Positions 47,591 through 63,873 of a stretch of 64,000 nt of DNA are shown here, one piece after another. A model generated the notes under the pieces. That model did no database searches and was not told the origin of the DNA. It worked only from the letters and a program-made list of their open reading frames with translations. Positions within the stretch are counted from its first letter, which is position 1. Every line of letters starts with the position of its first letter. Source of the DNA: Squalus acanthias (Eukaryota); assembly GCA_030390025.1 (NCBI GenBank), contig JASTWF010000034.1, positions 1,922,001 to 1,986,000 of the forward strand, read 5' to 3'. The position numbers were made by a program, and so were the translations under genes.

Positions 47591-47869
47591 GATAAAAATG
47601 ATTTATTAAGTGTCATAATGATTAAAAAAGCATCATAATGTTTTATTAATAGTCATAATGATTTATAAAGGGTTATAAAAGATCTGTAAAGTGGTGCAAT
47701 GATTTTAAAGGGTTATAATGACTAATAAAGTCCTGTTGCCGGGCCATCTCCTCCCCGGGCTGGGCTGCTCGGGGTCCTGTGGGCCAGGCCAGGCTGCTCC
47801 GCCTCGCCGCCCGCTCTCACAGTAACCGGGACTCCAACTGCTCCCGCCACCATTGAAAGTCCCGGAGTG

Positions 47870-49080
47870 ACCACCGCAAGCCTTGTGCTTGGCCCCAGAC
47901 ACACAATCCTTGTGCGGGGCCCCAGAGCCACCATCTTTGTGCGGGGCCCCAGAACCGCCAACTTTGTGCGGGGCCCCAGTGCCGCCATCATTGTGCGGGG
48001 CCCCAGAGCTGCCATCTTTGTGCGGGGCCCCATAGCCTCCATCTTTATGCATGGCCCCAGAGCCGCCATCTTTGTGCGGGTCCCCAGACCCGCCGTCTTT
48101 GTGCGGGTTCCCAGAGCCGCCATCCTTGTGCGGGTCCCCAGATCCGCCATTCTTGTGCGGGGCCCCAGAGCCGCCATCTTTGAGCGGGTCCCCAGAGCCG
48201 CCATGCTTGTGCAGAGCCCCAGAGCCTCCATCTTTGTGCATGGCCCCGCAGCCGCCATCATTGTGCTGGGCCCCCGAGACGCCATCTTTGTGCTGTGCCC
48301 CAGAGCCGCCATCTTTGTGCGGGTCCGCGGAGCCGCCATTTTTGTGCGATGCCCCGGAGCCGCCATTTTTGTGCGAAGCCCCAGAGCCGCCATTGTTGTG
48401 CGGGGCCCCGGAGCCGCCATTATTGTGCGGGGCCCCGGAGCCGCCATTCTTGTGCTGGGCCCCGGAGCCGCCATCGTTGTGCTGGGACCCGGAGCCGCCA
48501 TCTTTGTGCTGGGCCCCGGAGCCGCCATCTTTGTGCTGTGCCCCAGAGCCGCCATCGTTGTGCTGGGCCCCGGAGCCGCAAACTTTGTGCTGGGCCCCGG
48601 AGCCGCAAACTTTGTGCTGGGCCCCGGAGCCGCCATCTTTGCGCTGGGCTCCAGAGCCGCCATATTTGTGCGGGGCCCCATAGCCGCCAATTTTGTGCAG
48701 TAACCAGAGCCGCCATCTTTATGCGGGGCCCCAGAGCCGCCATCTTTGTGCTGAGCCCCAGAGGCGCCATCTTTGTGCGGGGCCCCGGAGCCGCCATCTT
48801 TGTGCGGGTCCTCGGAGCCGCCATTTTTGTTCAGTAGCCAGAGCCGCCATTTTTATGTGGAGCCCCGGAGCCGCCATCTTTGTGCTGTGCCCCAGAGCCA
48901 GCATTTTTGTGCAGGGCCGCGGAGTCGCCATTTTTTGTCGGGGGCCCCAGAGCCGCCATTGTTGTGCGGAGCCCCAGAGGCACCATTGTTGTGATGTGCC
49001 CCAGGAACCGCCCCCTTTGTGCGGGGCGCTGGTGCCGCCACCTTTTTGTGGAGCCCCAGAGCCGCCATCTTTGTGCGGCA
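47870..49080. repeat. 27-bp CpG-rich minisatellite (~45 units)
   Basis: Unit GGGCCCCAGAGCCGCCATCTTTGTGCG. A period divisible by 3 explains the stack of repeat ORFs. Confidence 0.95.
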
Positions 49081-49140: not shown

Positions 49141-50042
49141 TTATCCTTTAATGAATTTTACAATCAGAGTAAAGGGATATTTCCCCACATTCTTCACCTG
49201 CTGTCTAAACTTAGTCTGGGTCACGGCGTAAATCCCAGTGTTTGTGCAGCAACTCAGCAGCTGCAGCATGAATCCCAGTTCCATTACATAAACAGGTATA
49301 AATACAGAATCATACCCCAACCACCACATCCGGCTCCATATAGAGTACACCATAAACACTGTCCATAACAGGATGAAATTGCCGGAGATAACAAGCAGTA
49401 AAATTATGGATTTCCTGCGGCTCTCCATCTCTGGGTCTCTGGGACTCTCCCCACTGCTGGGACCCCGGAGTCTCCTGCGGGCTCTGCTGGCCACCAAAAT
49501 GTGTCTGACGGTGACAGCATTGAGCAGCAGAATCACCACAAATGGGAAACACGGGGTGAGAATATAATGAAGGAGCTCGATTGTTCCCCAGACCCGTGAA
49601 TGCCGAACATCCTCTGTGACCTCACAAAACCAGGGGACGTTCCCAAACGAATACCCACCTCTGAACATAAAATACCAGGTGATGTTCTTTAAACCGCTCA
49701 GCACACTCACTGTTCCCAGAACCACAGCCGCCGTTTTCTCGGTGCAATATTTAGTTTTCAGCTTCTGGCAACAAATGGCCACAAATCGATCAAAGGTGAA
49801 AGTGACGGTGAACCAGACAGAACAGTCTGTGGCTGCGAACAGCAGGACGGCGTGGATATTACACACGGGGATCGACCGCACGAAAATAAACTTTTCCTCA
49901 TAAACAATGGGAATCTGCCTCAATATCAGGTCGAGGAAAACGACCAGTAGATCCGCCGCTGCCATGGCCACCAGGTAGCGAGTGACACATTTGGAGAGAC
50001 CGCACTTTCCCCGAGACAGGATCACAATCGTCACTAAGTTCA
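49141..50042 (-). CDS. GPR139/GPR142-like class A GPCR, large terminal coding exon (end of TM1 to C-terminus)
   Basis: 300 open codons with NLVTIVIL, MAAADLLV (TM2), CNIH...FTFDRFVAIC (TM3, DRY variant), ECL2 Cys (PWFC) and SCCTNTGIY (TM7). Preceded by the acceptor TTTCCCTTCCTCACAG|TG. First exon not located. Confidence 0.88.
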
Positions 50043-52186
50043 CTGTGAGGAAGGGAAATAAACAGGGAAATTATTCATCAGGCTGGGAGCAAAAGCAGCA
50101 GTTTGATGGAATTCGGGGTGAAATCTGCAACTCACGAGCGACATTCAATGATATAATCTAATCCTATTACCTGTGGAGCTGAATACAGGGCTTATTGTAA
50201 GAATAATCGGGAATACATTGTGGAATCAGTAACTGAAATGGGAATAAATACAATACGAAAGTAACAGATGTTTGATCAAGGAGAGATTAAATGATCGATC
50301 TACATTTAGCCCAGCAGACAAAAGCACCACCCGAGGTACCAGGGACACAAAGGACCAGACCCTCTCAGGAAGCCTTCCTGTCCCGGGATCAGTCAGCATT
50401 TGGAGCGGTGCAGTTCGCTTCTGTGCCCCTGTGTTAGCGGGGGGTGGTGGGGATCCCGCTTGGATTCCTGCTCCTGGTCAGAATATCCATTCTATTTAGA
50501 ACTGAAAAGGAATGCAACAGCAAAATACAGAAACTGCAACCTTGGCATGCAATAATTACAGGCAATTGTATGTAAAATGTACGGATGTAATACGACAATG
50601 CTAAGATAATAAATACAAGTGCACTGCAGTTATAAAGATAACTGGGCTATCAGTTATGTTTTGAAGATAGAGTTTTCTGCATTTTTGTTGTAAGACACAA
50701 ATTCTAGCTCATTGAAAGGAAGATTTGCCAAGTAACATTGCAAATAATGGACTCTGAATTAAAGTAAATAGCGATGATCGACCAGGTAATGTCCCACTAA
50801 ATGCGTTTATCAGTATCGAAATCAGACAATTTATCCCACAGGCAAAGTGCGGTTGTAAAGTATCTGAGCGCAAATGGAAGAGATTTATCCTTGTACTTTT
50901 TCACCTGTTGTTTCCAACCTGTGTAGAGAATATTAGACGAGAAGACATCAAAGGATTTTCTTATCCTCAGTACTTCAGTTACAATCAGCTGGGATTGTTT
51001 ATCCTGAAGTACAGCAGGAGGCAATAGAGAAACACTCTGGGTCTCACTGACAGAGCCACTGAACTGTGACAGACGGGCATGGGATGCAATTGTGAATTCA
51101 AATCAATGATCAAAAAGAAATGTATTGAAATCTGGCTGAATGAACGTTTTGTGAGAATGTAAATTATCCTTGTAATCCTTTTTTAACCATCAGAAGCGTT
51201 GCCAATAATGCCGAACTGGAGAGGGTGGGAAAGGAGACACTGACTGGAACTGAATGATTAGCGGATATTTCAGACATTTAAAGATGTGGATGTGATCTGC
51301 CAGGATTTGTTCCTGTGACTCTGTAAGTAACCATACCGAGCATTAGGTGAAATCAAAAGCAAAATACTGCGGATACTGGAAATCTGAAATGAAAACAGAA
51401 AATGATGGAAATACTCAGCGGGTCAGGCAGCATCTGCGGAGAGAGAGAGAAACAGAGTTAACGTTTCAGGTCGATGGCCTTTCGCCATTAGGTGAAAAGT
51501 CTCCCGAACCAAGACAGCATTCTTCTGACCTGATACTAATGTTCAGTGTCGTTAGCAGACTGACATTCCTTGAATAAAGAGTCACCTCCAATAAATTTGC
51601 CAGAGTTGAACATTTGAATCTTGGTAACACGAAATCACCTTCAGAATCAATAGCTGACAGCAGCGCGGATGGGCTGGGGAACGACAGAGAGAGAAACACA
51701 GATAATCATGGGGGGAAAAGTCGGTTGGTTAGCACCTCCCCTGAGCACCTTCGGGGGGAGGGGTAACGGGGAGATAGGAGCTTAGTGCCCGAGTGCGGCT
51801 AGTTTAGCACCGCTCAGAAATTGACCAGTCATTTTGCGCTGGCACTAAACACTGCCGCCACGATCTCCTGCGCCTGCAGATCGTGACATCAGTCGAGCGT
51901 GCAATGCCCTGGTGGCGCCCTGGACTGAAAATTGACTCGCGTCCCCTGCCTTAGAGCCTGCCGCTAGGAACAACACGTAGAGGGGGTGTGTTTTCAAGTC
52001 GGGAAGGGGCTGGAGGAGTGCTATTTAAAGCCTCCTGCCGTATCTTGTCACCGAATTATTTGGACCACGCATGTTGAGAGACGCCTGGAGAGATTCGACG
52101 CTCACCGAAGGAGTTCTATGTTCTGAGCACCAATTTGGTGGTTCATTTTTATTTCACCTTCCTTCTAACGATATTTGTAAGCTTCG

Positions 52187-53069
52187 ATGGGGGCCGCACT
52201 AACTTGGGGCGTCGTCGTCCAGTTTCATCTTCGGAGACAGCAGAGACGCAGAGAGAGAGAGTGGCAAACGCGACCAGCGGAGTAGGTCCAACATGAGACC
52301 TTACCCTCCCAGGGTATTCAGGGAGCAATTCTCCTCCTATATCCATTTGTCTGAGGAGCAGTGTTTCCAATGGCTGCGCTTCAGCAAGGAGGTGGTCACT
52401 GAGCTCTGCCACCTCCTGCAACCAGATGTGCAGCCTCAGCTCAGGACCAGGACGTCTCTGTCGATGGCAGTGAAGTTGACAGTGGCTCGGAATTTCTAAG
52501 TCAGCGGTTCCTTTCAGGCTTCTACTGGGGATATAGTGAATATCTCCCAGTTCGCTGTTCATTGTTGCATCCGAGAGGAGACAAAATCTTTGTATAAGAG
52601 GAGACGCCAGTACATCACTTCTCATGACCCGGGACCAACAGCGCAAACACGCATGTGACTTTGCGAGGATAGCGGGCTTCCCCATGGTTCAGAGTGCCTT
52701 TGACTGCATGCATCTGTCATTGTGGGCACCTCATGAGAATGCAGAGGTGTTCGGAAACCACAAGGGCTTCCACTCTCTGAATGGCCATTTGGTCTGTGAC
52801 CACAGACAGCACATACTCGCCGTCAATGCACGCCATCATGGCAGCAGCGACAGCACTTTTATCCTGCACCAGACCACTGCTGCAGACCTCTTCCAACCAT
52901 CGTGTCAACCTAGTGGATGGCTCCTCGCGGACAAGGGTTGTCCACTCTGCACCTGGCTGATGACACCGCTCCAAAAACCCAACACCCCTGCCGAGTGGCA
53001 ATACAATGAGAGCCATAGCGCCAACAAAAATCTCATAGAGCAGACGTCCGGCATCTTGACACAACGGTT
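52187..53069 (+). pseudogene. HARBI1-like DDE transposase pseudogene, 5' part
   Basis: RPYPPRVFRE, LSEEQC..LRFSKEVV, SGSFQ, VQSAFDCMHL, GFHSLN, GWLLADKG and NLIEQTSGILTQR. Stop at 52497-52499 plus frameshifts. Confidence 0.9.
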
Positions 53070-55247
53070 ACATAGAAACATAGAAGATAGGAGCAGGAGT
53101 TCAATGCGATCATGGCTGATCATCCAAACTCAGTACCCTGTACCTGCCTTCTCCCCATATCCCTTGATGCATTTAGCTTTAAGAAATATATCGAACTCAT
53201 TCTTGAATATATTTAATGACCAGGCCTCAACTACCTTCGGTGGTAGAGAATTCCACAGGTTCAGCACTCCCTGGGTGAAGAAATTCTTCCTCATTTCTGT
53301 CCTAAATGTCTTACCCCTTATACTTAGATTATGACCCCTGGTTCTGGACTCTCCGACCATCGGGAACATTCTTCCTGCATCTAGTTTGTCCAGACCTGTC
53401 AGAATTTTATATGTTTCGATGAGATCCCCTCTCATTCTTCTCTACTCCAGCGAGTATAAGCCCAATCGACCCAACCACTCCTCATATGTCATTCCTGCCA
53501 TCCCAGTTATAGCCTTGTGAATCTTCGCTGAACTCCTTCCATGGCAAGAACATCCTTCCACAGATAAGGCGACCAAAACTGCACACAGTACTCAAGGTGT
53601 GGCCTCACCAAGGCCCTGTACAACTGCAGTAGGACATCCCTGTTCCTGTACTCAAACCCTTTCGCTATGAAGGCCAACATACCAGTTGCCTTCTTCACCG
53701 CCTGCTGCACCTGCATGCTCACCTTCAGCGACTGGCGCACAAGGACACCCAGACGTCGTTGCACTTCCCCTTCTCCCAATCTATTGCCATTCAGATAATA
53801 TTTGCCTTTCTGTTTTTGTCACCAAAGTGGATAACCTCGCATTTATCCACGTTATATTGCATCTGCCACGCTTCTGCCCAATCACCCAACCTGTCCAAAT
53901 CATCCTGGAGTTTCTCGGTATCCTCGTCGCAGCACACACTCCCACCCGGCTTTGTGTCATCTGCAAACTTGGAGATATTACATTTAGTTCTCTTATCCAG
54001 ATCATTAATATATGTTGTCAATAGCTAGGGTCCAATGACCGATCCCTGCGGTACCCCACTAGTCACTGATTGCCACTCGGAAAAAGACCCATTAAATCCT
54101 ACTCTTTGCTTTCTGTCCGCCAACCAGTTCTCTATCCTTGCCCCCAATCCCATGTGCCTTAACTTTACACACTAATCTCTTATACAGGACCTTATCGAAA
54201 GCGTTTTGAAAGTCCAAATACACCACATCTACTGGTTCTCCCTTATCTATTTTCCCAGTTACATCCTCAAAAATTTCCAGTAGATTAGTCAAGCACGATT
54301 TACCTTTTGTCAATCCATGTTGACTTTGTCCGATCCAGTCACTGTTTTTCAAGTACTCAGCTATTACATCCTTTATAATGGACTCTAGCAATTTCCCCAC
54401 TACCGATGTCAGTCTTACCGGTCTGTAATTCCCCGCTTTCTCTCTGGCACCCTTTTTGAATAGTGGCGTAATATTAGCTACCCTCCAATCCATGGGTACA
54501 TTTCCAGATTCCATCGAATGTTGGAAGATGATCAGCAATGCATCTACTATTTCTAGGGCCAGTTCCTTAAGTACCCTAGGATGTAGATTATCAGGCCCTG
54601 GGGATTTATCGGCCTTCAATCCCGTCAATTTCCCTAACACCATTTCCCTGCAAATACTGATTTCTGTCAGTTCCTCCCTTTCATCAGACCGTATGTTATC
54701 CAGCATCTCTGGGAGGTTATTTGTTTCCTCCTTTGTGAAGACAGAACCAAAATATGCATTTAATTGGCCTGGCATTTCTTTGTTCCCCATTATAACTTCC
54801 CCCACTTCTGACTGCACGGCACCTACACTTGATTTCACTAATCTTTTTCTCTTCACATATCTATAAAGGCTCTTAGTCAGTTTTTATGTTCCCTGAAAGC
54901 TTACTTTCATATTCTATTTTCCCCTTCTTAATTAATCCCTTTGTCGTCCTTTGTTGAATCCTAAACTACTCCCAATCCTCAGGGCTACCGCTTTTTCTGG
55001 CCAATTTATATGCCCTCTCCTTGGATCTTATGCTATCCCTAATTTCCCTTGTTAGCCGCGTTTGAGTCACCCTTTTTGTTTTATTCTTATGCCACACTGG
55101 GATGAACAAATTTTGTAGTTCATCCATGCAGTCTTTGAATGTTTGCCATTGCCTATCCATCGTCAACCCTTTGAGTGACATTCCCCAATCAATCCTACTC
55201 AATTCGCGCCTCATATCATCGTAGTTTCCTTTATTTAAATTCAGGAC

Positions 55248-56058
55248 TGTTAGATTCGAATTTGGAGAAACTCTAGACGGAGACGGAATTGAGGACAAGT
55301 TCAGAATTTATTAAAATAAACAAAAGACTTGTGCACAAGGGAGAGCCACTCAGCTTCCTCAAGCTAGGGGCGCACTCTCTGAGGAACAAGTAACGGTTCA
55401 TTCAAGTTATACATTTCTATAAGCACCGCCTACTTACTACAGAATGGGGCATACACGTACAAACAGTGTCACTACAGTTACTCTCTATTGGTTATATGGT
55501 TAGTCACTCAACTGTCGGGCCCTCCCCTTGAACCCTGACCATGCCAGTCACAGATGTTGGTTGCCTCATCCTACTCCCCAAATTCTTGCTTTTATCTCTT
55601 CCTTTGCGGGCATAGTTTATAGTTTGAGAAAACATATTTTATCCCTGGCTGTCGGACAGAGCGGGGTGGCTCAAGGCCGTAATGGCTTGGATGCTCAGTG
55701 ACTGGAACCGTGTTGGTCATTAATTGCTCCCTTATCTCTTGGGAGACCCGGTTCGAATAGTAGATGTACCCCCGTACCTGGAACTGTGTTGGTTGTTAAT
55801 TGCTCCCTTATCTCTTGGGAGGCCAGGCTGTGCTTTGACAATGGCTCTACTGAGGTTGTGAATACATATATTCCAAGGTTTGATAAGGGGAGAGAGGCAC
55901 CTTCCAGTCTACAAATATGCCTTAATTAGCTAAACCTACTATCTGAAATAAGTAGAGGGTAATGTAGTCAAGTATCCCAGCATTCTTTGGGAACAAGCAG
56001 GATCCTTCAGTAGTAGTCAAGTATCCCAGAGTTCTTTGGGAACAAGCTGGATCCTTCA
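55248..56058 (-). repeat. 3' LTR (811 bp)
   Basis: TGAAGG...CTAACA on minus; AATAAA at 55307-55312; CCAAT near 55490. Two substitutions versus the 5' LTR by eye. Confidence 0.97.
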
Positions 56059-56060
56059 GT

Positions 56061-56078
56061 CCCCCCTTCCAATCCCCC
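56061..56078 (-). other. Polypurine tract
   Basis: GGGGGATTGGAAGGGGGG followed by AC and then the TG of the 3' LTR. Confidence 0.85.
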
Positions 56079-56404
56079 GAAAAGGACCCTTGAAGGGGGT
56101 TGGAGAGTGTGCTCTCTACGCTAAATAGTGTGATAAGCTAGTGAGTGTATAATATGTCAGAAACGCATATAGGTTTTTCCCGGATCAGCTAGCACGAATG
56201 ATGAAGGTTTACCTATAAACCCACCCAATTTATTCTATACTTCCCCCTAGGCCTGTGGCTATTCCAGGTAGGCCGCACATTCCTTGCATATGGTCTGGTG
56301 TGAGTCCTGTCGGGGTGGCCACCCGTCTAGGCACCAGGTATGCATCAGATGAGTGAAGTTGCTATTTAGGCATTCCCCGATTCATTATATGATTGCTTCA
56401 TTAT

Positions 56405-58494
56405 TCATGCACATGATTTCTCCAACAAGTTGTCAAAATCATCATCTGAAACAATTGGAGTAGGAGCAGTACAAGCATTAACAGTTTTAACCACTTGGTT
56501 TGCAATTTGTTTAGCCCGAGTCCGTTTACATTTCCTGCATGTCATACACAACAAGATCAGGACAATTACTAACTGCACCACGACTAATACATGTGAAATC
56601 AATCGAATCCATGGATGGATCTGTATATTTAGTCCCCAGTCCCAAATGTCATCCAGCCATGTGGTCACCTTGATCGCGTCGATATCTTTCTTCAGATCCG
56701 TGTTCCGTTGTTGTAGAGTATAGTACACCTTCTGGGAGAGTCGTATCTCCTTTCTCAACTGCCTCAGGTGTTTGGGCAGGGGGGGTATAGGATACCCAAA
56801 GGTGTTGATGTAGTCCCATAATCCATACTTGATGTCTTCAGACACTTGAAGAAAGGTAATATCAAACTGGTGTATGTCCACCAATTCCTCATGTCCAATC
56901 CGTACCGGAACTGCAGGGGTGAAGCAGAACTCTGAACTGGGGATGTTGCAAGTTAGATTGGCATACTCAAACGTTTTCAGGTTGGTCGTCACACAGTATT
57001 CGCCTTTGCCGGCGTACGCCGCCTGGGTAGGCTTTGAGGCTGCGTCCAATGCTTCCATGGTGCAGTTAATTTCCATGCCTGTGTTATTAAAACCACATTG
57101 GGCTTGCGGGCTTTGGCTGATTGCATGCGGGCACATGATGATGGCATGTCTGGTGACGCATCCCTCCAGCTTAGTACCCATCCAGTCTCCTTTCACCATC
57201 ACTGCGTAAGGTAACATATTGTGGTAAGATATATGCATGCCATCTTTTAATATACCAATATTTTGTGCCTGATACACCTCCCGTCCTTGTGTCTCTGGTG
57301 TCATTACCGGGACGACCAGAATTAGCCCCAGGAATCCCCCCCCCCCGTCTGGTCTGCATTCAACCTGCGTGGGGAATACCCGTACCATGGCTCGGAATTG
57401 ACAAACTGTCATATTGAGGCTACTTAAGAGATGTTTGGGCGTTCCCGCCCCAGCGTGTCCGCGAGTCAGGGTCCCTTTTAACTGTTGGTTGGTAATCCAC
57501 AGGGGTACCTCCCCTGCCTGTATCTGTTCCAGGTTTTCTCGGGTTTGCTCCACTATCCAATTCCCATATGTGCTGCAAACGTCGTTTGCTGCTGCCTGCT
57601 GTGAGGCATTGTATTCTTCTTTAATTAACTTATTTATAGTCTGTGCGTGTGTTTCTAACACAGTAGCTATATCCTGGAGGTATACGGTTAATATCTTGTC
57701 CTCCTTTAACTCTTGGTCCTCATTCTTATTTTGCTCTTGTAAGATAGCTTTAATGCGGGAACCCAGATCCTGGACCTTCTGATCTACGGTAGCCAGATCA
57801 ATGGTGTTAACGACCGATGTGCCAGTGTTAAAAATCGTTGCTGCATCATTAACTAAAGACCTCTTACGTCGCCATACCCGCCGGCTTCCCTGTCTATATC
57901 CGCCTCCGCTACGATCCGCGCCTTGTTTCAATACCTGTGTTAGAAGGCGCTGGTATAACTGTTGGGTTTGTGGTGAGCACCAAGCAGGCAGGGCGGTGTT
58001 GGCCAGGTTTAGCACCACTGACACTAATTCATGACGCACGTTATCATACAATATATCCCCAGTACGGGTGAACACCAACCCACTAGCGGGTCCCTCTTTC
58101 ACGGGGGGGCAGGTCAGTGGCTCGCGCTCGGAGGGGAAAGGTGTTGTGGAAACCATTGGGGGCAGGGGTGTAGGGGGGGGGCACCCCAGTAGCAGCCGAT
58201 CACCAGCGGTAGCCCGGGCTCCTCGTATTGTTCTATGATTCCGAAAGTCTGACATCTCTCTGAGGTAGGCGTGCATGAGGGTTCCCAGTGCCTCGCATTA
58301 TTCTGACAGCATATCCTGTCCGTCTTCCCTGTGATTTTACTGGTACAAACTCCCCTGTGCGTTTTGTGTGGACCAGTAGTCATTTCACAGAAAAAGGGGG
58401 CTCCCGACCGGTCGACGCAGAACCCCAGTGCCGTGATGGGTGTTGTTTATTCACTGATCAGTATCCCTATCATTCCCATGATAAGCCACCCCAT
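56405..58494 (-). CDS. env: Envelope / class I fusion glycoprotein (F-like); 5' end carries one stop and one frameshift, the C-terminal ~590 codons are open
   Basis: Kozak ACCATGG at 58494 with hydrophobic leader MGWLIMGMIGILISE*. Furin site RRKR at 57871-57860, then fusion peptide and heptad repeat, Cys-rich region, Trp-rich membrane-proximal region, TM ISHVLVVVQLVIVLILLC and tail. Confidence 0.9.
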
Positions 58495-58734
58495 GGTTAT
58501 CCTATACCACCGCTAGGCAGAAGGAGTCCGATTCGTTTATCTGTCTCGACACTAGCTTGTACAGTAGTAACTAGCAGGCTCTCTCTCTCTCTCTCTCTCT
58601 CTCCCTGTTTGTCCTGGTATTGGCCGTGTGCGCAGGGCTCGGAGCGGGGTTAAGGCTACTTCATACGTGGCATTGAGGCGGAGACGATGGCCTTGTGACA
58701 GTGGCTCAATGTAACTTACCTGACTTAACGTGAT

Positions 58735-59148
58735 TCAGTAAGGGTTAGGAGCTGTCGGACGGGGATGGGTGAAGACAGGTTGCACTGTCCTCCTTCGGAG
58801 GTAGGAGGGCCTATAATAGGGAGTGGATATCCCCTGGGGAAGGTCCTCCAGTCCTGACTCCAGCGGTTCCCAAAGAGCAGCTGTATCTCGGAACCGGTCT
58901 GTCTCCCCTGCACGGGGTAGGGTGAATAAAAGAGTCTGAGTTCTGTTGGGATGTAAAGCGAGGGGTCCGGTGGCCCTACCACAAAAGGAAGATAACCGGA
59001 ACTCTAGAGTCAAGGGGTGAATCCCGGGGAAGGTTAGAGTCGTATAATAATGTGAGTTCGTGGGATCCCTGGTTAAGTCGAAAGCCTGGACCGTAGAAAG
59101 GTCGACATCTCCGGTAGTGGTGGCAGTACTGAGGTCGGACCCACTCAT
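58735..59148 (-). CDS. Putative 137-aa accessory protein of unknown function
   Basis: ATG lies immediately after a strong acceptor (TCTCTTTCTTACAG|ATG). A consensus donor CAG|GTAAGT follows 15 nt after the stop. Confidence 0.6.
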   Translation of the reverse strand: MSGSDLSTATTTGDVDLSTVQAFDLTRDPTNSHYYTTLTFPGIHPLTLEFRLSSFCGRATGPLALHPNRTQTLLFTLPRAGETDRFRDTAALWEPLESGLEDLPQGISTPYYRPSYLRRRTVQPVFTHPRPTAPNPY

Positions 59149-59670
59149 CTGTAAGAAAGAGACAGGTAAAATAGCAACCCGAGGAACCGACTTAATCCTT
59201 CGAAATCCGGTTCTGATCAAGTATAGGGGAGAAAAGGCAGGTCAATACTTGTTTTTATTTCTTTTTAATTGTAAAACGAACACAACAGATATGTCTTTAG
59301 AAGGGTTGACAGCTTAAAAGGGTTAACAGCTTTTAGCTCTCTGTACCAAAAGGTGGGTGGAGCTAACAGATACAACATACATTTCCTCAAAAGGGTAAAC
59401 AGCTTTTAGCTCTCTGTACCAAAAGGTGGGTGGAGCTAACAGATACAACAGGCACCCTTTTTAAAACAGACTTTCAGACCAAGGAAATACCGTAACTTCT
59501 TAGAGTTTATAGTCAGGAAACTTTCACACAGACTTTCACACAGACTTACACACAGACTGAGATCTCAGCATTCCCTTTAAGATTCCTTTCGCTCAGCAAA
59601 TTCTGGATTTTACTTTTTTTTTTATTCTCCAAGAGGTGGGGAAATCTCTTCCCCGGGCCCCGTCACTGGC

Positions 59671-60941
59671 TTAGTCTGGCTCCATTTTAATACCCCCGGG
59701 TGCCTTGGTGGACCAGGGCAGAGAAGCTGGGGTGAATCCTTGACCGGAGGCATGAAGGTCTGTCTGGTGAAGCCCAAAGAGTCGACAAGCCCACTCCCGG
59801 ATTCCGGCCTCCGTGGGCTGGGGGCTGGCCCCCATTCGGAGGGCGGTTTGGTAGGGCTTTTCCAGCCCCTGGAGTAGATTATCTAAGAACCGTGGGTCGT
59901 CATGATTAGCGGGAATGTTATTCGTCTGGCCCCAATGTTCATTCTGCTCGATTACTCGATCAATGTACACATTGGGGTTTTCTCCGGGACTCTGGCGCAG
60001 GGCGGTGAGCCCCGCCCAGGTAGCGGTGCCGTTGCCCAGTCCAGCCTGCGCCCAGGTTTTTAAACCATTGAATTGGATCTCATACTCTGCTACCGTGGCT
60101 GGGACATTTAAGACATGGGGTCCCAATGTCCCATAAACCATAGAGGGACATTTTACCTCGATAATATCTTTTATGTCTTGTATGGACAAATTAAAGTGCC
60201 GAGCAGCACTTCGTATTTTTGCCCATACTTCGACGTTAGGATTGTATCTTTTGAGGTCGTGTTCGAGGAGGATGACACTGGATCTCTCCTGGGGCGTAAA
60301 AGAATGAGCCTCGCCCATCGTACCCCGTCCACCTATCTCTGCATTTTGGGCTCCTGCTGCCGGATTAACTCGGACGGGGGCCGTGGGGTTGGATTTTCCT
60401 GCCCCAGACTGAAGCGGTAAGGTGGGATAGATACGAGTGTATTCGGGGGGGGGCACGTGGGTTGGATGGCTTCAACTCGTTGAACCTTTACGGTCCCCGA
60501 TGGGGGCCGGGGTTCTAGGATCGGTGTGTCTCGAGTCTCCTTTTGTAGAGCCTCAACAATGTCCCCCCAGTTTTTCAAATCATCTAGATTCTCAGTCCCT
60601 GGTGACTTAAGGTGCAGGAGATTGCTAACTTGGACTTTAACCTCCTGCATAGGTCTCAAGAATCCTTGAAACGGGGTCGGTCTTCCCCCCTTATCCACGA
60701 TTATAGATCCCATCTGATCCATCCAACTAATACACAGAACCGCCCCGTACTTAGCTTGTTTGGCTTATTTTTGTTCCGCCCACCACTTTATTTGGTCAGC
60801 TACTGAGCTTGTTTCTTTCCACCCCTTTTTAACCATTTCACTCTGAAGTTTCAAATTAGCCTCTCGGACCTGTTGAACGACAGTGACACTGGTGGCCATA
60901 GCCGGAACGTCGGGTGAAAGAGATCTCCCCTTGTTTCCCAT
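59671..60941 (-). CDS. gag: Gag (one in-frame stop at 60765-60767, one frameshift in a C9 run at 60445-60453)
   Basis: MGNKGRS start; PPEY, YPTL and PTAP motifs; MHR-like RQSPGENPNVYIDRV followed by FLDNLLQGL. No CCHC knuckle seen. Confidence 0.88.
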
Positions 60942-61515
60942 GTGATCCATATTAATAGTCACGTGTATTCTTATACTCTATCTTATACTTTAATCGGCAC
61001 AAGCGACACAAACTTACACTCTAAACAGACTCTAACTTAAATCCCTCCGGGTCGTCACCCGGTATTTTGCGTACACTTAATCGTCACGGGATCACGATCC
61101 TGTGGTGTTTTAGTTCTCTACACCTACTTGATCCTGGCCGTCACGTGGGGCCCAATCGCCCTCTTAATTCAGGCTCAGGCTAGGTGTTTGAGATAGACAA
61201 CCACCCTTGTCCGTGTCGATCACCCGTGACTCTCAAGGATCCAATCTTATACTTTAAATCAGAAATATACACTTATCACCTTATACTCTAAATCAGAAAA
61301 AAAACACATGTCTAATCAATTCCGTCAGTCCGGTCTCCGTGAGGAATAATTTAAGTTGTGGGTACTTTTATACTGACTGAACCATAAACGGTTTTAGCCC
61401 CACCGGTGACGAGCGAGTCCTTGTTCCTCCTAAAAGCCTTACTCTGGCTTTTCCCTTAGGACACGACATGGTTCTCGCTTTAACCGTCACTTCCTGTGTC
61501 TTTAACTCCTATGGT

Positions 61516-61524
61516 CCTTACCTG
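61516..61524 (-). promoter_or_regulatory. Putative major splice donor
   Basis: CAG|GTAAGG, with the junction 7 nt downstream of the PBS. Confidence 0.7.
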
Positions 61525-61528
61525 CAGT

Positions 61529-61546
61529 ATCCCACTTCTGACACCA
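61529..61546 (-). other. Primer-binding site, tRNA-Leu(CAA)
   Basis: TGGTGTCAGAAGTGGGAT is complementary to the 3' 18 nt (ATCCCACTTCTGACACCA) of vertebrate tRNA-Leu-CAA and lies 2 nt (GT) from the 5' LTR. Confidence 0.93.
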
Positions 61547-61548
61547 AC

Positions 61549-62359
61549 TGTTAGATTCGAATTTGGAGAAACTCTAGACGGAGACGGAATTGAGGACAAG
61601 TTCAGAATTTATTAAAATAAACAAAAGACTTGTGCACAAGGGAGAGCCACTCAGCTTCCTCAAGCTAGGGGCGCACTCTCTGAGGAACAAGTAACGGTTC
61701 ATTCAAGTTATACATTTCTATAAGCACCGCCTACTTACTACAGAATGGGGCGTACACGTACAAACAGTGTCACTACAGTTACTCTCTATTGGTTATATGG
61801 TTAGTCACTCAACTGTCGGGCCCTCCCCTTGAACCCTGACCATGCCAGTCACAGATGTTGGTTGCCTCATCCTACTCCCCAAATTCTTGCTTTTATCTCT
61901 TCCTTTGCGGGCATAGTTTATAGTTTGAGAAAACATATTTTATCCCTGGCTGTCGGACAGAGCGGGGTGGCTCAAGGCCGTAATGGCTTGGATGCTCAGT
62001 GACTGGAACCGTGTTGGTCATTAATTGCTCCCTTATCTCTTGGGAGACCCGGTTCGAATAGTAGATGTACCCCCGTGCCTGGAACTGTGTTGGTTGTTAA
62101 TTGCTCCCTTATCTCTTGGGAGGCCAGGCTGTGCTTTGACAATGGCTCTACTGAGGTTGTGAATACATATATTCCAAGGTTTGATAAGGGGAGAGAGGCA
62201 CCTTCCAGTCTACAAATATGCCTTAATTAGCTAAACCTACTATCTGAAATAAGTAGAGGGTAATGTAGTCAAGTATCCCAGCATTCTTTGGGAACAAGCA
62301 GGATCCTTCAGTAGTAGTCAAGTATCCCAGAGTTCTTTGGGAACAAGCTGGATCCTTCA
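61549..62359 (-). repeat. 5' LTR (811 bp)
   Basis: Direct repeat of 55248-56058. Confidence 0.97.
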
Positions 62360-63873
62360 GGACCCTAGTCTCTGATTCAACTACTTCACCCTCCATCCTA
62401 ATGAAGAATTCTATCATATTATGATTACTCTGACCCAAGGGGCCTCGTACAACAAGATTGCTAATTAATCCTTTCTCGTTACATAATACCCAGTCTAAGA
62501 TGGCCTGATATCTGTTGGTTCCTCGACATATTGTTTCAGAAAACCATGACGTAAACATTCCAGGAATTCCTCCTCCACAGTATTTTTACTAATTTGGTTA
62601 GCCCCATCTATATGTAAATTAAAGTCACCCATGATGACTGCTGTACCCTTACGGCATGCTTCTCTAATTTCCCTTTTATTGCCGTCCCCAACCTCCGTAT
62701 TACTGTTTGGAGGTCTATATAACACTCCCACAAACGTTTTCTGCCCCTTGTTATATCTCAGTTCTACACATACAGATTCCACATTATCAGAGCTAATATC
62801 CTTCCTTTCAATTGTGTTAATCCCCTCTTTAACCAGCAATGCTACCCCACCTCCCTTTCTTTTTTGCCCATCTTTCCTAAATATTGAATAACCCTGGATG
62901 TTGAGTTCCCAGCCTTGGCCACCCTGGCGCCATGTTTCTGTAATCCAAATCAAATCGTATTCATTAACCTCTATTTGCGCAGCTAATTCATCCACCCTCC
63001 CCAACAGCACTCGCAAACACTCCCCCGAGGACATCGGACCCGGCCCTGCCCAGGTGCAGACCGTCCCGTTTGTACTGCTCCCACCTCCCCCAGAACCGGT
63101 TCCAATGTCCAAGGAATTTCAATCCCTCCCCCTTGCACCATTCCTCTAGCCACGTATTCATTTGAAATATCCTCCTATTTCAACTCAGACTTCCACATGG
63201 CACAGGTAGCAATCCTGAGATTACTACCTTTGAGGTCCTATTTTTTAATTTACCTCCTAACTCCCTATATTCTGCTTTTAGGACCTCATCCCGTTTTTTA
63301 CCTATATCGTTGATGCCTATGTGCACCACGACAACTGGCTGTTCGCCCCCCTCCCTCCAAAATGTTCTGTAGCCGCTCCGAGACGTCCTTGACCCTTGCA
63401 CCAGGGAGGCAACACACCATCCTGTAGTCTCGTTGTGGCCGCAGAAACGCCTATCTATTCCCCTTACAATTTAATCCCGTATCACTATAGCTCTTCCACA
63501 CTTTTTCCTCACAGCCTGTGCAGCAGAGCCACCCATGGTGCCAGGAAGTTGGCTCTGCTGCCTGCCCCTGATAAGTCATCTCCCCCAACAGCATCCAAAG
63601 TGGTATATCTGTTTGAGAGGGGGATGGCCACAGGGGACCCCTGCACTAACTGCCTGCACCTCTTCCTCTGCCTGGTGGTCACCCATTCACTTCCTGCCTG
63701 TACACCCTTTACCTGCGGTGTGACCAACTCGCTAAACATGTTATCCACGACGTTCTCAGCGTCGCGAATGCTCCAATATGCATCCATCCGCAGCTCCAGT
63801 GCTGCAATGCGGTCCATCAGTAGCTGCAGCTGGATACACTTCCCACACACATGGTCGTCAGGGACACAGGACG

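Follow-up and report, generated by a model that had tools for sequence, protein, structure and literature searches.

A young, pol-deleted endogenous retrovirus of Squalus acanthias from a family with a predicted F-type envelope

F-like envelope proteins have been published for lokiretroviruses (Wang and Han, 2021, PMC7947760), errantiviruses (10.1101/2023.10.26.564294) and foamy viruses (Fernandez et al., 2024, PMC11468914). An env reading frame of this layout is present in a stretch of 64,000 nucleotides of the shark Squalus acanthias (contig JASTWF010000034.1, positions 1,922,001 to 1,986,000; hereafter the window), which raises the question of what kind of virus it belongs to. The initial annotation had seen in it an envelope that is not orthoretroviral and a lineage that either resembles the lokiretroviruses or is new. 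Our analysis indicates that the element is very probably a young, pol-deleted endogenous retrovirus (ERV), whose family has its reverse transcriptase (RT) among the canonical retroviruses, in a basal grade including snakehead retrovirus (SnRV), and whose intact Env is a predicted F-type class I fusogen.

The env is carried by a 7.1-kb LTR provirus at 55248-62359 on the minus strand (Table 1). Its two LTRs differ at 2 of 811 bases, and duplications of 4 bp, as found at its ends, were read at other copies of the family too. The provirus is inserted in a LINE; RT/endonuclease-like frames, which we take to be parts of that LINE, flank it on both sides. The 18-mer primer-binding site (PBS), presumably of tRNA-Leu type, is identical in 17 of 18 scored LTR pairs and has a single change in the remaining pair; ARAGORN found no tRNA in the 64-kb window. 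At the internal junction the Gag zinc knuckles, protease, RT, RNase H and most of the integrase are missing. The provirus is a young, pol-deleted and otherwise ordinary defective copy. Elsewhere in the window, a single-exon frame of 309 codons (49141-50070, minus strand) has GPCR-like motifs (DLLVV, FTFDRFVAIC) and probably represents, as we assume, an expanded shark orphan-GPCR gene, and a 264-codon frame (52540-53334, plus strand) resembles what we take to be a Harbinger/PIF DDE transposase fragment. Long repetitive ORFs in several frames arise from a tandem array at 47767-48983, in which a 27-bp unit occurs more than 30 times, and the window is rich in minisatellites with units of 32-82 bp.

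Table 1. Features of the provirus, in positions of the window
Feature	Position	Strand	Remarks
Target-site duplication GTCC, 3' copy	55244..55247	-	
3' LTR	55248..56058	-	pairs with 5' LTR
Polypurine tract	56059..56078	-	
env, gene of the predicted F-type class I fusion glycoprotein	56405..58494	-	broken near 58448 and at ~58175-58185
Transmembrane helix	56546..56611	-	preceded by heptad repeat B and WLDDIWDW
Furin-type site RRKR	57860..57871	-	codon 143 of the open frame; followed by putative fusion peptide, then heptad repeat A
ORF X, candidate accessory gene between pol and env	58735..59148	-	137 codons; starts at splice acceptor
GT-AG intron of family transcripts	59149..61521	-	joint 59148/61522, CT..AC ends
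Integrase remnant, last ~20 codons	59622..59684	-	terminates where integrase does in L040 and L033
gag (matrix and capsid), broken	59671..60950	-	stop at ~60766, frame break at ~60400-60450; ends before nucleocapsid
Internal-deletion junction, ~3.8 kb missing	59678..59684	-	from comparison with L131, L134, L135 and L136
Primer-binding site	61529..61546	-	18-mer
5' LTR	61549..62359	-	811 bp, TG...CA
Target-site duplication GTCC, 5' copy	62360..62363	-	

The initial annotation had marked 56405..57871 for the envelope and had listed RRKR with 484 residues downstream, a Cys block, WLDDIWDW, a transmembrane (TM) segment, a juxtamembrane Cys and DFDNLL, without CX6CC. Each of these motifs is where it had been placed; the span, however, covers only the part from the RRKR codon to the stop, and the gene is longer, with its start Met at 58494. 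The stop-to-stop frame (56408-58297, minus strand) has 630 codons, its hydropathy peak (2.97) starts at codon 566, and its tail carries CMTC in addition to DFDNLL. CX6CC is absent from this frame, and the sole CXXC is the juxtamembrane one. Taken singly, every one of the 12 ectodomain cysteines is kept in 87-95% of the aligned relatives with a residue at that column, and the 20 residues following the furin site are weakly hydrophobic (mean 0.65 versus 1.82 in a lokiretrovirus Env).

Two lesions, a stop and a frame break in a C run (Table 1), cut off the 5' part of env in the window copy. Since both sever the leader, the 630-codon frame is without a signal peptide, and it is unlikely that this copy makes a membrane-targeted Env. 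Of 20 copies examined, 2 have a hydrophobic leader that begins at the counterpart of Met 58494 and reads in frame into RRKR; counted from this start, cleavage falls at residue 211 of the roughly 695 of full-length Env, and the upstream part adds a module of 125 residues with 8 Cys ahead of the conserved core. Both of these copies are broken further on, and env is open from leader to stop in none of the 20 genomic copies. Frameshifts in the env core occur in 17 of the 19 other copies (window equivalents 58100, 57330-57340 and 57470). Among the indel events in env copies, 27 of 40 lie in or beside homopolymer runs of at least 5 bases, and some of these indels may be assembly errors. Pfam searches of env, the gag pieces and ORF X gave nothing at cut-off; one relative matched Baculo_F at E 0.0011, short of the Pfam cut-off.

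The fold of the ectodomain was assessed with a monomer model of 494 residues built from a 70-row alignment (pLDDT 67.8, pTM 0.55), in which 138 residues, including fusion peptide and heptad repeat B (HR-B), have a pLDDT below 50. The initial annotation had proposed Foldseek on a trimer model as a check; run on the monomer, Foldseek recovered the paramyxo/pneumovirus F fold: in the PDB, postfusion RSV F came first (E 1e-10, TMq 0.42), followed by the F proteins of hPIV3, Langya virus and NDV, and TM-scores were only 0.4-0.45. The match is not due to chance, as 241 PDB chains were found at E <= 0.001 and the top ranks listed are all paramyxo/pneumovirus F. VIA, which is independent of Foldseek and was run on 48,161 chains, placed exclusively F proteins or foamy Env at ranks 1-16 (Z 9.8-5.7), with the first unrelated row at Z 4.8; five chains reached Z >= 8, the tool's level for a match standing above common arrangements. 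The BFVD matches by Foldseek comprised F proteins of lispivirus, baculovirus and paramyxovirus besides the Envs of WEHV-1 (E 3.6e-9), feline foamy virus and walleye dermal sarcoma virus (WDSV; E 4.4e-5). Language-model (ESM) features for Fusion_gly, Baculo_F and Gypsy env appeared at 0.94-0.95, with low recognition. Folding Env from the single sequence gave a pLDDT of 37, and the single-sequence PDB search was likewise uninformative.

The predicted model contains the F core (beta-domains I/II between HR-A and HR-B), and the order of basic cleavage site, weakly hydrophobic fusion peptide, HR-A, HR-B and TM fits F-type (subclass Ib) class I fusogens. The intact family Env is, therefore, predicted to be an F-type class I fusogen. 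The F-like architecture read from the letters at the outset is upheld by the fold model with three structure searches, by language-model features and by profile matches to foamy and lokiretrovirus Env. The F proteins of paramyxo-/pneumoviruses and baculoviruses and the F-type Env of errantiviruses are alike in predicted fold and element order, but share only 7-14% identity with the shark Env, which does not match Pfam Fusion_gly or Baculo_F.

A profile of the Env family connects it to several retroviral envelopes. It aligned with a caecilian Env of lokiretrovirus type over 385 columns (probability 97.7, 15% identity), with WDSV Env over 445 columns (97.1, 18%; without shuffle control) and with SnRV Env over 288 columns (92.4, 20%). 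The scores of the lokiretrovirus and SnRV Envs were 97.9 and 58.5, respectively, versus at most 24.1 in shuffled or reversed controls (12 shuffles for SnRV). A gamma-type Env control remained at background (probability 0.6-1.0), as did the N-terminal half of SnRV Env and SnRV Gag. Foamy Env reached hhalign probabilities of 4-67, lower than the WDSV, lokiretrovirus and SnRV Envs; among PDB sequences, foamy Env was the only one matched at E < 0.001 (E 1.8e-5). Plain HMMER at database scale (E 15) and BLAST do not bring the SnRV Env match to significance, nor does pairwise BLAST that of the lokiretrovirus Env. A gappy lokiretrovirus env piece fused in P0108 was missed by the profile (E 1.6), and the full-length Env of this type was found separately. 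A shark epsilon Pol query had no match in viral contigs.

These envelopes differ mainly outside the shared core. SnRV Env is colinear with the family Env (CP..GP motif, basic cleavage site, C..YG, G.vP, C..C), but has approximately 500 residues before this core compared to approximately 125 in the shark family, as well as a 136-residue tail. In the walleye epsilonretroviruses WDSV and WEHV-1, Env is alike from the CP motif to the membrane anchor, but measures approximately 1150-1300 aa with long extensions. The F-type core of lokiretrovirus Env is homologous and has short F2, RxKR, the two heptads and the Cys cluster in common with the shark Env, whereas the lokiretrovirus fusion peptide is of the hydrophobic Gly/Ala type and a Cys-rich N-terminal module is absent. 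Foamy Env (8OZH, 8RM0/8RM1) shares the F-like fusion core (VIA Z 8.5); its receptor-binding domain is inserted between the two subunits, whereas the extra module of the shark Env is N-terminal, and RT and Gag differ. The hallmarks of gamma-type Env (CX6CC, an immunosuppressive domain in TM, CXXC in SU) were not found in the shark env.

SnRV and WDSV belong to the Orthoretrovirinae (PMC12193657), where SnRV is unclassified, and their Envs align with the shark family; to call the envelope not orthoretroviral was, thus, too strong. The accompanying premise that epsilon-type Env is not F-like did not hold either, as the walleye epsilon Env turns out to be F-like by profile and BFVD. Because the family profile aligns with lokiretrovirus, SnRV and WDSV Env and not with the gamma-type control, the F layout is, as judged from sequence, no hallmark of lokiretroviruses and occurs inside the Orthoretrovirinae as well. 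SnRV-like ERVs with env are known from the elephant shark, including CmiERV lineage I (PMC4422223, PMC4977317). The literature searched, of which coverage is incomplete, nowhere calls the Env of SnRV or of the walleye viruses F-like and does not describe an F-type env in shark ERVs.

The lineage of the family was determined from RT. Trees comprised 91 (quick tree), 49, 37 and again 37 rows after redundant and long-branch rows were dropped. The anchors, labelled by comparing their motifs with the supplementary RT alignment of PMC7947760, were SnRV (P0091, L149), lokiretroviruses (P0090, P0099), WDSV (L165) and four IMG/VR contigs with foamy motifs. The family RT falls within the canonical-retrovirus clade, apart from the lokiretroviruses, with support of 100/99 (99/94 once foamy viruses were added), and forcing it together with the latter is 51 log units worse (AU p = 7.7e-6). 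It also lies outside the foamy viruses (100/100), the gamma and epsilon group including WDSV (99/98) and the rows with ERV-L motifs (100/99), and forms a clade with another shark family carrying an F-type env, family B (99/91). The base of the tree is a polytomy which includes the family and SnRV, and one tree groups the family with SnRV and class I at 86/87; because of the polytomy, the label 'SnRV grade' should not be taken as a demonstrated clade with SnRV. The Gag capsid matches SnRV Gag with 30% identity over 121 aa (E 2.5e-10). SnRV further resembles the family in having pol in frame after the Gag stop and spliced accessory ORFs, and its PBS differs.

That the element is a true lokiretrovirus, which would be the first from a chondrichthyan, is extremely improbable on these results, and we consider this reading largely refuted. 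Its Env is indeed homologous to lokiretrovirus Env over the 385 columns mentioned, and pol-less derivatives of that group exist (BHIKHARI; 10.1101/2024.03.25.586437). The dual RNase H layout, present in the pol of shark relatives (family A), would also agree with it, but is common to all retroviruses and hence non-discriminating. However, the AU test, performed on trees with two to three lokiretrovirus RT rows, rejects the family RT from that clade, the family has the RT motifs LPQGFHNAP and QYVDD instead of RCPFG, Env identity is low, and Gag matches that of SnRV. When the shark's own genome was queried with lokiretrovirus RT, the best matches were 34-41% identical among the 136 scored of 16,984 candidates, with no RT of lokiretrovirus grade. 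This outcome agrees with the published screen, whose supplement (PMC7947760) covers five chondrichthyan genomes and contains a row 'Orectolobiformes, 3, 0', the meaning of the columns being uncertain. The resemblance to lokiretroviruses suggested in the initial annotation is, consequently, not supported.

A fish or shark foamy-like ERV (FLERV) is another candidate, considering that foamy Envs were the only PDB sequences recognized by the profile at the threshold given above and that shark FLERVs have been described, with no env detected in them (PMC5512871). This origin is very improbable. The RT lies outside the foamy clade, here made up of the four foamy-motif references and not of fish FLERV RTs. 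Further, two CCHC knuckles in Gag and protease/pol in frame after the gag stop (L038) are unlike foamy viruses (PMC2717909), and foamy Env aligned with lower probability than the other three.

A genome DNA search revealed 255 candidate copies of the element, of which at least 40 are 97-100% identical (40 scored). In 20 stretches around copies, none of 19 elements has a complete pol. Pieces of the missing region persist in some of them, namely the zinc knuckles, integrase and a protease in frame behind the gag stop; L038 and L040 are two such copies. An integrase query, linked to the closest named relative (Heptranchias perlo), led to twenty further loci. In four of these (L131, L134, L135 and L136), the sequence flanking 59678-59684 is 90-97% identical to the window on either side, with approximately 3.8 kb more between, including RT. 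Hence, the window element derives from a longer form by internal deletion, and env matches at 89-98% in family members that keep pol. A family wholly without pol was considered and is ruled out by these pol-bearing loci and the partial pol of other copies. No intact helper was found among the pol regions inspected (6 of 6 broken). As the deleted genome is without nucleocapsid and pol, it must have been copied in trans; presumably, the deleted form was copied many times with polymerase and nucleocapsid supplied in this way.

Several arrangements were seen among the copies and their relatives. Head-to-tail tandem copies of the element lie approximately 6.1-6.3 kb apart at L024/L025 (with shared LTRs), C29:9.45-9.47 Mb and C9:86.89-86.91 Mb. 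L146-L148 and L144 form an older related subfamily with an env of 72-76% identity, and three of these four loci have little or no gag/pol. In a sister subfamily (L132, L133, L137-L140, L142, L143), env is about 90% identical to that of the window only in the C-terminal 260 residues, and a second env-like segment (32-43%) is situated upstream; the env of these loci is apparently recombinant or partly duplicated.

ORF X is 75-97% identical in relatives and shows a synonymous excess (p = 0.035, uncorrected), but has no Pfam or Atlas match. The splice joint 59148/61522 was found in 4 of 8 public runs from two studies; the runs are presumed to be RNA, although none is so recorded. Such a joint would remove gag and link the 5' leader to the first base (ATG) of ORF X. 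For env, 15 of 30 shared variants are synonymous versus 8.9 expected (context-matched test, p = 0.009, in the coding frame only), this being one of 42 uncorrected tests, and p = 0.067 over all variants. The unweighted pN/pS of 0.5 (p = 1e-4) ignores mutation bias. The context-matched result hints, though weakly, that the function of Env mattered while the family spread. Domestication by the host as a syncytin-like env, with which the open frame of 630 codons and family transcripts in the presumed-RNA runs would be compatible, is hardly conceivable for an element that is multicopy, has near-identical LTRs, is inserted in a LINE, and whose env, interrupted ahead of the furin site by a stop and a frame break, lacks an in-frame signal peptide.

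F-type envelopes are not restricted to this family. A phmmer search gave 50 Env matches; ten were examined, and the eight with names all come from sharks or frogs. P0011, P0018, P0022, P0037 and P0068 are F-type Env homologues of bamboo shark and frogs (Pelodytes, Mantella, Xenopus) with longer N-terminal modules; one of the bamboo shark/frog homologues has a weak V-set Ig match (E 0.045), and Mantella has a 16-member cluster of near-identical Envs, mostly of 677 aa. In the genome of S. acanthias, three further families with F-type env were detected, each on its own RT branch. Family A (L061-L070), a separate ERV family, is young and present in very many copies; its gag is open, with one CCHC knuckle, its pol frame has approximately 1500 codons, and its env is of F-type. 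Its LTR pairs are 96-99.9% identical, and at least 100 RNase H matches were scored. The window env is closest to that of family A (36-39%), and the RT of the window family groups with family B. The Env tree has long branches and a base without resolution.

Instead of being ancestral, the F-type env could have been captured late by recombination, from a lokiretrovirus, foamy virus or RNA virus donor, into a basal shark retrovirus, and then have passed laterally between the ERVs of fishes and frogs. Anamniote ERVs frequently exchange env (10.1101/2021.11.23.469661), the discordance between nearest env (family A, 39%) and nearest RT (family B) fits such an event, and the sister subfamily provides apparently recombinant env loci in this very genome. 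On the other hand, at least five separate RT branches (shark A, shark C, B with the window family, SnRV, WDSV) carry this Env family, in addition to foamy viruses and lokiretroviruses, the Envs across those branches are only 15-39% identical to each other, and no close donor was found among the 50 phmmer matches or in BFVD (best 14%). We regard late capture as rather unlikely. Since the base of the Env tree lacks resolution, it stays a rival for the origin of env, but not for its fold.

Paramyxovirus F and foamy Env suggest, by analogy, how an intact Env with the predicted F-type fold would act. A signal peptide would send the precursor to the ER, and furin would cut it at RRKR. The N-terminal subunit would then comprise the Cys-rich module of approximately 125 residues together with a strand and a helix resembling F2, and a disulfide would hold it to the F1-like subunit. 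Cys107 and Cys241 (open-frame numbering), retained in 24 of 26 rows and in 41 of 45, respectively, are the likely inter-subunit pair. The Cys-rich module, whose size varies between families, is likely the receptor-binding part. Acting as a trimeric class I fusogen (compare PMC11468914), the protein would extend HR-A, insert its fusion peptide and fold back on HR-B into a six-helix bundle.

Four scenarios were left open for the origin of retroviral env by Wang and Han (PMC7947760), who later preferred independent gains, with canonical Env lacking similarity to the Mononegavirales-F-like Env of lokiretroviruses (PMC9040795). In the part of Viro3D concerned with F (PMC12583693), Metaviridae are the only reverse-transcribing clade named in the tree. 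An anamniote Env survey (10.1101/2021.11.23.469661) and a preprint on chondrichthyan syncytins (10.64898/2026.05.06.723177) cover gamma-type or syncytin-like Env, and the terms 'paramyxo', 'foamy', 'snakehead' and 'loki' were not found in the text of the preprint. What is new here, on the strength of sequence profiles and predicted structure, is a basal canonical retrovirus family with a compact, apparently F-type Env that links the envelopes of lokiretroviruses, foamy viruses, SnRV and walleye epsilonretroviruses. With the shark family, this Env is now seen on several branches near the base of the canonical tree. Its profile serves as a sequence bridge which detects the Envs of SnRV and WDSV, two exogenous Orthoretrovirinae, as well as those of lokiretroviruses and foamy viruses, and the question of env origin thereby becomes testable by structure and phylogeny. 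A lokiretrovirus cannot be recognized by an F-like env alone. Surveys for env that start from gamma/beta TM overlook a large class of envelopes in the ERVs of sharks and frogs. Whether the F-type is the ancestral envelope of all retroviruses, with the gamma/beta SU-TM Env as a derived or replacement form, is in our estimation evenly balanced. If true, the F-type Env would have been retained by foamy viruses, lokiretroviruses, SnRV, the walleye epsilonretroviruses and a number of abundant ERV lineages of sharks and frogs, which would overturn the preferred model of independent env gain by canonical retroviruses and lokiretroviruses (PMC9040795). The compact shark Env, an F core with a small N-terminal module, would then link the lokiretrovirus Env to the large Envs of SnRV, WDSV and foamy viruses.
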